Source of the DNA: Candidatus Eiseniibacteriota bacterium
GTDB lineage: Bacteria; Eisenbacteria; RBG-16-71-46
Reading direction: 5' to 3'
Length of the DNA: 64,000 bases
NCBI GenBank assembly: GCA_963717505.1
Contig: OY970342.1
Coordinates: forward strand, 1,376,001 to 1,440,000
Position numbers and translations under genes: made by a program. Within the stretch, counting starts at the first letter, position 1; each line of letters starts with the position of its first letter. The notes under the pieces are model-generated. The model saw nothing but the letters and a program-made list of their open reading frames with translations, ran no database searches and had not been told where the DNA came from. This document shows positions 35,872 through 37,725 of this stretch, in pieces.

Positions 35872-36336
35872 TCAGCTCTTGCTCGCCATCGTCTCCATGT
35901 GTTGCTTCATCTCGGCGTCCGAAACGTCGCGAACGTGGGTGGCGATCGTCCACACGTGGCCGAAGGGATCGGTGAACGTTCCGGATCGATCCCCGTAGAA
36001 CTGATCCTGGAGCGGCTTCATCTCCTTGCCGCCCACCTTGAGCGCTCGCGGATACGCCTCGTTCACGTTGTCGACGTAGATCATCAGGCTGACCGGCGTG
36101 CCGCCGATGGTTTCCGGCCCCAGGTAGTTGAGCGACGGAACTTCATCGGCCAGCATGATGCGCGAGTTGCCAATCTGGATTTCCGCGTGACCGATCGAAC
36201 CGTCGGGCATCGGCATGCGGAACAGCTCGCGCGCGCCGAGTGCTTTCACGTAGTAGTCGAGCGCCTTGGCGGCGTTCTTCACGATGAGATACGGAGTGAT
36301 GCTGTGATAACCGTCGGGAATGGACTTCACGGGCAT
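35872..36336 (-). CDS. VOC family protein (PhnB-like)
   Basis: IPDGYHSITPYL, HAEIQIG, DQFYGDRSG..DPFGHVW. Confidence 0.92.
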   Translation of the reverse strand: MPVKSIPDGYHSITPYLIVKNAAKALDYYVKALGARELFRMPMPDGSIGHAEIQIGNSRIMLADEVPSLNYLGPETIGGTPVSLMIYVDNVNEAYPRALKVGGKEMKPLQDQFYGDRSGTFTDPFGHVWTIATHVRDVSDAEMKQHMETMASKS

Positions 36337-36415: not shown

Positions 36416-36877
36416 TCAGCTGGCGCGAGCCAGCCCTTCATCGGGGGTATGCAGCGCCCGCAGACGCTCCCGAACGCGCGCCACGCGCACGGCGCTCACT
36501 GTTTCGACCGCGTAGCGCTCGTCCCATGCAAGGTTACCGCGCAGCCAGACCCGCAACTCGGGAAAGTCCGCCAGCAATGTGTTGGCGGTGCGGCCCTTGA
36601 GTTCGCGAATCACGCTGGCAATGCTCTGCGACGGACGGATTGCCAACAGCACGTGGACATGGTCCGGACCCGCGGCCACCTCGAGCAGCGAATAGCCGCG
36701 GTCCTCGCACACGGTCGTGACCTGGTGGTTGAGCGCGCGCACGTGGCGATCCTTGAGCACCGGTCGTCGCGCTCGCGTACTCCAGGTGACGAGGTAGTGG
36801 AGCTGGCTGCGATACATCGGTTCCCAGCGATGGCTGAGAGTTTCCTGGATCTCGGGAGCCAGCATTCGGCTATTCAT
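36416..36877 (-). CDS. tnpA: IS200/IS605-family Y1 (HUH) transposase homologue, catalytic Tyr apparently absent
   Basis: LHYLVTWSTRARR, PDHVHVL (HUH), LKGRTA, FPEL, WDERYAVETVS; the YxxxQ helix reads VRERLRALH; GAGGAGG RBS. Confidence 0.8.
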   Translation of the reverse strand: MNSRMLAPEIQETLSHRWEPMYRSQLHYLVTWSTRARRPVLKDRHVRALNHQVTTVCEDRGYSLLEVAAGPDHVHVLLAIRPSQSIASVIRELKGRTANTLLADFPELRVWLRGNLAWDERYAVETVSAVRVARVRERLRALHTPDEGLARAS

Positions 36878-36905
36878 GACGATCTTCCTCCTCACACCCC
36901 GCACC

Positions 36906-36919
36906 TGAACGTATGTGCA
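36906..36919. promoter_or_regulatory. Putative LexA operator upstream of the tnpA-like gene
   Basis: TGAAC-GTAT-GTGCA: same arms as the box in the lexA promoter; resembles GAAC-N4-GTTC SOS boxes. Confidence 0.6.
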
Positions 36920-36933
36920 CCAACGGGTCCTAG

Positions 36934-36954
36934 AAAAAGGGAGCCGAAGCTCCC
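36934..36954 (-). terminator. Rho-independent terminator downstream of lexA
   Basis: Minus strand GGGAGC-TTCG-GCTCCC-TTTTT. Confidence 0.85.
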
Positions 36955-36998
36955 GGTGAAAAACTCGACTGCTTCTTGTTCATCCTGGTTCGTGTTCA

Positions 36999-37034
36999 TC
37001 CGGAGCGCGCCGGCTCGACGGGGCGCGCTCCGGA
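36999..37034. repeat. Perfect 13-bp inverted repeat in the lexA 3' UTR
   Basis: TCCGGAGCGCGCC-10 nt-GGCGCGCTCCGGA. Confidence 0.7.
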
Positions 37035-37043
37035 CTTCGAACC

Positions 37044-37646
37044 TCAGTTCATCCCGGAGCGAACCAGGCCCCGCACCACTCCCAGAATCCTGAACGAAAC
37101 TCCCTCGCGAACCGGAATCGGGCGATACCTGGCGTTGGCGGGCAACAACTCGATGCCGCCGGGGCCAGGCTTGTAGTACTTGACGGTAGCCTCGTCTTCG
37201 AGCAATGCGACGATCATCTCGCCCGGGCTCGCGGTGTTCTGATGCCGGACGACGACGAAATCGTTCTCGAGGACCCCAGCCTCGATCATGCTGTCGCCGC
37301 GCACGCGAAGCGCGAACAACTCGCCCGAGGTGCCGAACAGCTCGTCGGTCTCCAGATGACCTTCGAACGACTCCTCGGCGAGAGTCGGCTGGCCGGCGGC
37401 GACACGACCGAGAATCGGGATCCCGGTCTGACGTGCTGGGTGGCGCGAGGTCTCGATCCCGCGAGAAATTTTCTCGCTGCGCCGGAGCTTGCCCTCTTTT
37501 TCGAGTCGGTTCAGGTGGTATCGGACGCCGTTGGTCGACGCGATGCCAAACTCCTTGCCGATCTCGCGGATCGTTGGCGGGAAGCCGCGCTGACGGATGA
37601 ACCGCTCGATGAACTGGAGAATCTCCAGCGTGCGCTCGTTCCGCAT
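37044..37646 (-). CDS. lexA: SOS repressor LexA
   Basis: GFPPTIREIG winged HTH, ILGRVAAG cleavage site, LRVRGDSM (Ser), EATVK (Lys); AAGGAG RBS. Confidence 0.96.
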   Translation of the reverse strand: MRNERTLEILQFIERFIRQRGFPPTIREIGKEFGIASTNGVRYHLNRLEKEGKLRRSEKISRGIETSRHPARQTGIPILGRVAAGQPTLAEESFEGHLETDELFGTSGELFALRVRGDSMIEAGVLENDFVVVRHQNTASPGEMIVALLEDEATVKYYKPGPGGIELLPANARYRPIPVREGVSFRILGVVRGLVRSGMN

Positions 37647-37695
37647 ATGGTCGACTCCTTGATTCAAAGGTCCACGTGGGACCCGGCACAGGCGG

Positions 37696-37725
37696 ATACT
37701 AGTGAACACGCGTGCAGGCCGTCAA
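37696..37725 (-). promoter_or_regulatory. lexA promoter with putative LexA operator in the spacer
   Basis: Minus strand TTGACG-18 nt-TAGTAT; the spacer holds TGAAC-ACGC-GTGCA (37703-37716, plus strand). Confidence 0.75.

Follow-up and report, generated by a model that had tools for sequence, protein, structure and literature searches.

Transposases of the IS200/IS605 insertion sequences (IS), the TnpA proteins, build their active sites in trans: the HUH motif is supplied by one subunit and the helix with the catalytic tyrosine by the other (PMC3597680; this paper and the others cited here are used in excerpt). Some descendants of these Y1 enzymes have been kept by their hosts. The REP-associated tyrosine transposases (RAYTs, or TnpA-REP) retain the IS200 catalytic centre and accompany repetitive extragenic palindromic (REP) or REPIN repeats (PMC5581495). 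In the lexA-imuB-C-polY operons of the Geobacter sulfurreducens type, a small cassette for damage tolerance, including a Y-family polymerase (PolY), begins with lexA; in described SOS modules, ImuB-C is linked to DinB and SplB-like radical-SAM enzymes (PMC6511836, PMC3765255). Here we describe a gene located directly downstream from lexA in a 64,000-nt stretch (the window) of the genome of a Candidatus Eiseniibacteriota bacterium (contig OY970342.1, positions 1,376,001 to 1,440,000). Its product, referred to as the Y1-like protein, keeps the TnpA fold but carries a conserved arginine or lysine in place of the nucleophilic tyrosine. The gene is present in single copy, is inherited with lexA under purifying selection and lies behind a terminator-like hairpin, preceded by a separate copy of the operator that the lexA promoter carries. 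On balance, these in silico observations are probably best explained by a domesticated, non-catalytic SOS gene whose product binds single-stranded or hairpin DNA in damage tolerance.

The genome under study is a single 4.16-Mb contig with a completeness estimate of 86.68, and the module lies entirely on the minus strand of the window. Three genes follow one another in the same orientation: lexA, the Y1-like gene 166 nt further on, and a VOC/glyoxalase-family gene (Table 1). A preliminary description of this DNA had reported an intact tnpA-like open reading frame (ORF) with a strong ribosome binding site (RBS) and a DHVH motif, and all of these were found again. The frame is open over positions 36416-36904, with a likely start at the ATG at 36877-36875, 7 nt past a GAGGAGG sequence. 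The product matches the Y1_Tnp profile PF01797 (E 2e-23; 83.2 bits, cut-off 23), the match covering profile positions 3-115 of 121 only, and passes the NCBIfam equivalog NF033573 for IS200 (82.8 bits, cut-off 55). An AlphaFold2 model built from the alignment of 63 sequences of the family had a pLDDT (predicted local distance difference test) of 81.6. Foldseek placed the TnpA proteins of ISDra2 (2xm3), IS608 (2vju) and IS200 (2f4f) in its top ranks (E 1e-10 to 1e-7, target-normalised template modelling (TM) scores 0.7-0.8), the best PDB match being ISDra2 TnpA (E 1.4e-10, target-normalised TM 0.78). The same protein came first in a phmmer search against PDB sequences (E 1.3e-14). A RAYT structure, 4er8, gave a much weaker fold match (E 7.9e-5), and the Y1-like protein departs further from RAYTs in scoring 39.5 bits with NF047646, below the cut-off of 80. 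Sequence family, fold, HUH motif (H73 and H75) and the W..Y...TVS core motif are all shared with the TnpA proteins of IS200/IS605 elements.

What distinguishes the protein from these enzymes is its former catalytic helix. In the alignment with ISDra2 TnpA, the segment QKYIESQH, which contains the catalytic Tyr132, pairs with RERLRALH, so that arginine (R138) occupies the position of the tyrosine and leucine (L142) that of the glutamine. The loss of the YxxxQ helix, already suspected in the preliminary description, was thereby confirmed, as was the altered N-terminal pattern, HYLVTWSTRAR aligning with EYHLIWCVKYR of ISDra2. None of the 63 relatives has a tyrosine in this column, which holds Arg in 59 sequences, Lys in 3 and Val in 1. 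The conserved basic character of the replacement suggests that the former catalytic helix may still have a role. The family as a whole is basic (median isoelectric point 9.6) and Arg-rich (13% Arg), with 14 residues invariant in the 63 sequences. Past a variable linker, 57-60 of the 63 members end in an L-A-x-A-S tail (residues 149-153, window 36419-36433), which is missing from most forms of family f3 (see below). The transfer-messenger RNA (tmRNA) tag of the genome ends in ...FALAA, and one guess, based on resemblance to this tag, is that the tail might serve as a degron.

A profile search of 1.84 billion cluster representatives returned 5841 matches at E<=0.001, with only 7 at E<=1e-30. The nearest proteins outside the family retain the YH..KYR, HUH and Y..Q motifs. 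A strict HxH...Y..Q-type pattern was fitted by 72 of 100 single-domain representatives, and most of the C-terminal tails of the other 28 showed, by eye, a Tyr variant or a fragment. Since the nearest other Y1 proteins keep their tyrosine, its loss is derived and specific to this family. No fusion to a LexA head was found among the longer proteins, nor in 19 extended or multi-domain representatives scanned from the best 150 profile matches. The same 19 included tandem double-Y1 proteins (~270-295 aa) and fusions of Y1 to a response-regulator receiver or to sigma-70 region 4 (P0134-P0136, P0148, P0196, P0221), further hints of reuse of the fold outside transposition.

The HUH residues have had a different fate from that of the tyrosine column within the group. 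We denote by f1 the family of the genome under study, the one most sampled, and by f3 and f2 its sister families. Of the 63 relatives, 59 retain H73 and 60 retain H75, with losses at both positions in f3 and f2: f3 orthologues read DRVH, TQIR or GQVR instead of DHVH, and f2 orthologues read DRLD or DHVN and end shortly past an LW motif. Because the f3 and f2 orthologues retain their place after lexA and the box described below despite having lost the HUH site, the selected function does not need this site.

The assignment of the upstream gene is straightforward: its product combines the LexA DNA-binding domain with an S24 peptidase domain and passes TIGR00498. The preliminary description had placed the Y1-like gene co-directionally 3' of lexA beyond a terminator, and the palindrome GGGAGCTTCGGCTCCC followed by TTTTT does lie between the two. 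Among the 9 GGGAGC...GCTCCC palindromic sites of the genome, it is the sole one with a T tail. In an initial set of 30 related loci (24 from f1 and 6 from f3), a strict GGGAG...CTCCC pattern with a T run was present in 17, and most of the others showed, by eye, a variant hairpin followed by a T run. RNAalifold yielded no consensus structure for 14 intergenic regions, in which the left arms were misaligned, and individual sequences served to assess the hairpin instead. In the 14 aligned regions, full conservation was confined to the columns of the box, part of the T run with the stem, and the RBS. This hairpin and its T tail may do more than terminate transcription.

A box matching TGCAC-N4-GTTCA exactly (minus-strand reading) is found both in the spacer of the lexA promoter and ahead of the Y1-like start codon, as the preliminary description had stated. 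The exact motif occurs 4 times in the genome, twice at this locus; a back-to-front control pattern occurs twice. The other two exact matches, inside the genes for methylmalonyl-CoA mutase and SelA, were taken as chance. With one mismatch allowed, the window contained 4 sites against 2.54 expected, which is not above chance, so that the box owes its significance to the exact matches and to its conservation among relatives. This conservation is extensive. A box lies between the -35 and -10 motifs in all 30 lexA promoters, 29 of them showing perfect TGCAC-N4-GTGCA and the genome under study GTTCA in the right arm. A box also precedes the Y1-like gene in 34 of 35 loci (the initial 30 plus 3 from f2 and 2 modules from genome G102, added later). 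In the 30 f1/f3 loci it is present in 29, upstream of the start by 33-42 nt in f1 and 47-77 nt in f3, with at most one mismatch in 26 and two mismatches in 3; the locus without it is L029. Its right arm is mostly GTTCA (21 of the 29 boxed loci), the other forms being GTGCA (4), GTACA (2) and GATCA (3). A promoter of the form TTTTCA + 17 nt + T..GTT was considered for the Y1-like gene; it is weak and fails in the 4 loci with GTGCA. Such a promoter would explain, if weakly, the preference for GTTCA. Mazon et al. reportedly described in 2004 a Fibrobacter succinogenes-type LexA box of sequence TGCNC-N4-GTGCA. The palindrome TGCAC-N4-GTGCA of the lexA promoters, here a predicted operator only, resembles that box, whereas the sites before the Y1-like gene differ from it in their mostly GTTCA right arm.

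Table 1. Features of the lexA-Y1-like module (window coordinates) and predicted LexA-type sites elsewhere in the genome (positions prefixed G000:C1; PWM, position weight matrix)
Feature	Position	Strand	Details
lexA promoter	37696-37725	minus	TTGACG (-35), 18-nt spacer, TAGTAT (-10); consensus scan, 1 site against 0.2 expected in shuffles
LexA-type box 1, TGCACGCGTGTTCA	37703-37716	minus	In the lexA promoter spacer; PWM 20.5 bits, genome rank 6
lexA, 200 aa + stop	37044-37646	minus	PF01726 + PF00717; TIGR00498, 176.5 bits (cut-off 110.95)
GC-rich hairpin directly after lexA stop	36999-37034	minus	Read from sequence; genome-specific insertion, missing in the shorter intergenic regions of relatives
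Terminator-like hairpin, GGGAGCTTCGGCTCCC	36934-36954	minus	GGGAGC-TTCG-GCTCCC (36939-36954), then TTTTT; between lexA and the Y1-like gene
LexA-type box 2, TGCACATACGTTCA	36906-36919	minus	3' end 28 nt ahead of the Y1-like ATG; PWM 23.1 bits, genome rank 2
RBS, GAGGAGG	36887-36893	minus	AGGAGG type kept in relatives
Y1-like gene (Tyr-less IS200/IS605 Y1 fold), 153 aa + stop	36416-36877	minus	PF01797, NF033573, AlphaFold2 model, Foldseek
HUH codons, H73-V74-H75	36653-36661	minus	DHVH = residues 72-75
R138 codon	36464-36466	minus	Position of ISDra2 TnpA Tyr132 by alignment
VOC/glyoxalase-family gene	35872-36336	minus	PF00903; 82 nt downstream of the Y1-like gene; context only
Predicted site, small ORF + PolY			PWM 24.3 bits; ahead of the genes
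Predicted site, DUF6504-like small ORF + PolY + DUF72			PWM 21.6 bits; ahead of the genes
Candidate site, OsmC-like gene	G000:C1:1288181 (L064)		PWM 21.3 bits; 90 nt upstream
Candidate site, mraZ-mraW	G000:C1:4023724-4023739 (L065 ~2500)		PWM 21.2 bits; 67 nt upstream, head of the dcw cluster
Candidate site, radical-SAM gene	G000:C1:1875976 (L070)		PWM 15.4 bits; 32 nt upstream
Candidate site, recA promoter	G000:C1:2255606-2255619 (L095)		One-mismatch box between TTGACG and TATCAT

The preliminary description had named copy number, synteny and the ratio of nonsynonymous to synonymous substitution rates (dN/dS) as checks, and each of them came out in its favour. PF01797 has one match in the genome, and no IS partner accompanies it. 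Elsewhere, matches were present in 37 of 41 close genomes and in 97 of 201 genomes sampled across the phylum (tallies that include an unpublished genome, G026). By family, these were 78/86 in f1, 9/9 in f3, 3/3 in f2, 2/12 in f13 and 4/14 in f15; none was found in f10 (0/41), f7 (0/8) or the remaining families of the 201-genome sample. Completeness is 65-97% in those f1 genomes that have no match. Four fetched hits from f13 and f15, together with two second hits in f1 genomes, proved to be ordinary IS200-like or RAYT-like genes, and the helix tyrosine is present in all four ordinary hits whose alignments reach that stretch. Because of this distribution (f1, f3, f2) and of the ordinary nature of the f13 and f15 hits fetched, the Y1-like family is a trait of one order and not of the phylum as a whole. 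In all 35 family-type loci (30 from f1/f3, 3 from f2 and 2 from G102) lexA lies directly upstream on the same strand. No lexA was seen near any of the 6 ordinary IS200-like hits within the stretches fetched, three of which are contigs only 2.5-2.9 kb long.

Pairwise protein distances of the Y1-like protein and LexA, compared without the frameshifted locus L029, were correlated both overall (r 0.89, 406 pairs) and within f1 (r 0.48, 253 pairs), the latter value being reached in none of 2000 Mantel permutations. Median dN/dS over the 253 f1 pairs (NG86) was 0.30 for the Y1-like gene against 0.32 for lexA, the same constraint; with synonymous sites almost saturated and a strong codon bias, the ratio is usable only relative to lexA. 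The reading frame is intact in 29 of the 30 loci across the two families, L029 being frameshifted as well as boxless. That locus and the truncated f2 forms are what one would expect if the gene were a relic in decay, itself without function, its DNA being kept for the signals of its neighbours. This explanation we hold to be very improbable: intact frames in two families and a dN/dS equal to that of lexA largely refute it, and so do the 14 invariant residues and the conservation of the RBS and the C-terminal tail.

Contigs C6 and C7 of G102 (L083, L084) carry two further modules, each with a lexA-like gene, a Y1-like gene, boxes, hairpin and RBS. Their lexA-like genes are only 34-45% identical to the LexA studied here, and one of the Y1-like genes is frameshifted. 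Either paralogy or a mixed bin (contamination estimate 3) may account for these modules.

The genome was also examined for the usual companions of Y1 enzymes. The absence of tnpB noted in the preliminary description extends to the whole genome, where PF07282 has no match; the next gene downstream is the VOC/glyoxalase gene. Dispersed repeats were seen neither near the gene nor genome-wide: 14-mers from the surroundings of the gene have at most 11 copies in the genome, the most frequent being GC-rich low-complexity words. Among 18-mers with at least 6 copies genome-wide, only a Walker-A coding motif and tandem coding repeats were found, and no REP-like family. A word present in 37 copies, considered as a possible hairpin target, turned out to belong to a 216-bp tandem coding repeat. 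These repeats span ~12 kb (G000:C1:2130339-2141815), contain 37 exact copies of a 25-nt core and apparently lie within one giant repetitive gene. No conserved hairpin such as an IS right end was found downstream of the Y1-like gene. The gene thus differs from those of IS200/IS605 elements in being single-copy and syntenic, in having neither tnpB nor a conserved right-end hairpin, and in carrying a LexA-type box. With RAYTs it shares the condition of a single-copy, vertically inherited Y1 descendant kept by its host (PMC5581495), but its product has no tyrosine and its genome no REP-like repeats.

These results bear on the function proposed as an example in the preliminary description, that of a dominant-negative guard poisoning active IS200/IS605 or REP-mobilising transposases under stress. 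In principle a Tyr-less subunit could poison a related enzyme, as TnpA is a dimer with active sites formed in trans (PMC3597680). Against this, the genome lacks further Y1 genes, TnpB and REP-like repeats, and few of the 201 genomes sampled were seen to carry ordinary IS200-like genes. With the nearest active type the protein shares ~30% identity, which is low for mixed dimers, and the trend is for the gene to be conserved in genomes without IS200/IS605 elements. We regard the guard as quite unlikely. The core of the earlier interpretation, namely a Y1 gene that lost catalysis, was domesticated and became linked to the LexA regulon, held up in all the in silico tests it had named. Its second example, a repair accessory, fits better than the guard, since in f3 the gene precedes a Y-family polymerase behind the same box.

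In the f3 loci the Y1-like gene is followed on the same strand by genes for PolY and a DUF72 protein, all behind one box, and in one of them (L030) the order is lexA, Y1-like gene, imuB-C-like small ORF, PolY. The arrangement in f1 is different. Downstream of the Y1-like gene, the fetched stretch shows no further gene on the same strand in 23 of 24 f1 loci; 21 of the 23 have a convergent ORF (an EamA-type transporter in the two tested) and 2 nothing callable. The genome under study is the only one of the 24 with a VOC gene in this position, and no clear terminator separates that gene from the module. In one f2 genome (L077), lexA and the Y1-like gene are separated by another, different VOC gene. 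The VOC genes near the module may reflect coincidence or SOS-linked cargo. Elsewhere in the genome under study, two boxed operons combine an imuB-C-like small ORF with PolY (L062 2494-4000 and L063 2540-4836), the second also including DUF72. The polymerase ORF of L063 (300 aa) starts inside the IMS domain and may be frameshifted or wrongly started. In five genomes from other families of the class, none with the Y1-like gene, the lexA loci differ: of eight such loci, 2 have a perfect box, 2 a downstream PolY and 1 a DUF6504-like small ORF. Together, these arrangements fit a history in which an IS200-type element inserted into a polymerase cassette headed by lexA and was then kept.

Such neighbourhoods would also be consistent with the Y1-like protein being an accessory subunit or adaptor of the SOS polymerase, analogous to standalone ImuB-C or UmuD', that binds the polymerase or RecA and brings the polymerase to gaps of single-stranded DNA (ssDNA), DNA binding alone not being its main role. 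The position of the f3 gene between lexA and PolY behind one box, and the gene order of L030, speak for this, as do the lexA-imuB-C-polY operons already described and the common occurrence of inactive proteins in mutasomes (PMC6511836, PMC3765255, excerpts). The f1 loci argue the other way, 23 of 24 having no same-strand polymerase after the gene. Moreover, the polymerase operons of the genome under study have a box and an imuB-C-like gene of their own, and the Y1-like protein shows no sequence likeness to DUF6504/ImuB-C (a Pfam scan gave PF01797 only). The adaptor is accordingly a possibility to which we assign a minor share of the probability.

In regard to the described lexA-imuB-C-polY operons, the two boxed imuB-C-like/PolY operons and the f3 series of lexA, Y1-like gene, (imuB-C-like ORF) and PolY represent clear points of resemblance (PMC6511836, PMC3765255). 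The difference lies in the Y1-derived gene, an extra and undescribed member. It is not itself a member of ImuB-C (DUF6504), the imuB-C-like small ORFs being separate genes.

A genome scan with a PWM of the box returned six sites above 20 bits, followed by a gap down to 16.1 bits. Besides the two sites of the module, they precede the two sets of polymerase genes, an OsmC-like gene and mraZ (Table 1). Judging from its position, the mraZ box could link the SOS response to cell division. The boxes of the OsmC-like gene, of a lower-scoring radical-SAM gene and of the recA promoter are further candidate SOS sites. The set of boxed genes resembles the described SOS modules.

The mechanism that we favour can be outlined as follows. 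In the ancestor of an order of Eisenbacteria-like bacteria, an IS200/IS605-type Y1 transposase gene would have been fixed immediately 3' of lexA and domesticated. LexA would repress the gene, and DNA damage would induce it among very few SOS genes. Having no means to form the covalent 5'-phosphotyrosine link, the product would neither cut nor transpose; it would instead bind single-stranded or hairpin DNA at damaged forks without catalysis, probably as a dimer by analogy with known TnpAs. The conserved arginine of the former catalytic helix may take over a contact with the backbone. Most likely the protein would act in damage tolerance beside the SOS Y-family polymerase module.

The constant proximity to lexA also lends itself to another explanation, namely that the protein tunes the SOS switch, altering LexA cleavage or rebinding; to do so it might contact LexA or the RecA filament, for example, or act as a sensor of ssDNA. 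Adjacency in 35 of 35 loci is what this predicts, though a terminator-like hairpin separates the genes in most of them. Being a target of the repressor accounts more simply for a place next to its gene, and none of the longer or extended proteins mentioned above joins a Y1 domain to a LexA head. We consider such a modulator unlikely.

Several points weigh against a domesticated, LexA-controlled DNA-binding protein and have to be set beside the evidence in its favour. Only the location of the operator, in lexA promoters and ahead of genes of SOS type, assigns it to LexA, and the PWM was trained on 59 related sites that included both sites of the locus studied. The consensus scan found no convincing sigma-70 promoter between the terminator and the Y1-like start codon. 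Among the contigs of 4 sequencing runs, only two of 151 nt, from a metatranscriptome library, were identical to lexA (37293-37580) and none was identical to the Y1-like gene; contigs of this kind show neither level nor ends. In f1 the gene is not beside a polymerase gene. The termination of the f2 proteins after the LW motif would mean that part of the fold is dispensable or decaying there. Finally, DNA binding and dimer formation are things that we infer because TnpA does so, and the PolY link is inferred as well.

A more specific version of the favoured mechanism can be proposed tentatively, as a conjecture that we think has a modest chance of being right. The dead Y1 protein would be a new SOS component, a non-cutting sensor or clamp of structured ssDNA, the arginine holding the backbone. 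It would mark damaged forks and recruit or license the LexA-controlled Y-family polymerase, as a transposase-derived counterpart of UmuD' or ImuB-C. The L-A-x-A-S tail would limit its lifetime or dock a partner.

The combination appears to have gone undescribed. The literature found on LexA-linked, domesticated or inactive IS200 TnpA, as far as the excerpts go, contains no description of lexA with a Tyr-less Y1 gene, and no paper was found on LexA in Eisenbacteria or on LexA-binding motifs and transposases in the SOS regulons of candidate phyla. In the main text of two RAYT papers (PMC5581495, PMC6006769) LexA and SOS are unmentioned, as are transposase and IS200 in that of PMC3765255 and PMC6511836 and HUH in that of PMC3765255, the one of the two searched for this term.

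One practical consequence concerns annotation. As the protein passes the NCBIfam equivalog cut-off, annotation pipelines can be expected to label it an IS200/IS605 transposase, which misleads counts of mobile elements. Beyond this, the domesticated Y1 transposases so far known are the RAYTs, with their IS200 catalytic centre (PMC5581495, excerpt). The Y1-like family would represent a lineage-wide case in which the Y1 fold has been kept after the loss of catalysis and placed under the master repressor of the DNA damage response. It would thus offer a clean natural experiment on what the HUH/Y1 fold does without its chemistry, and a candidate new player in the very small SOS regulon of an uncultured phylum.

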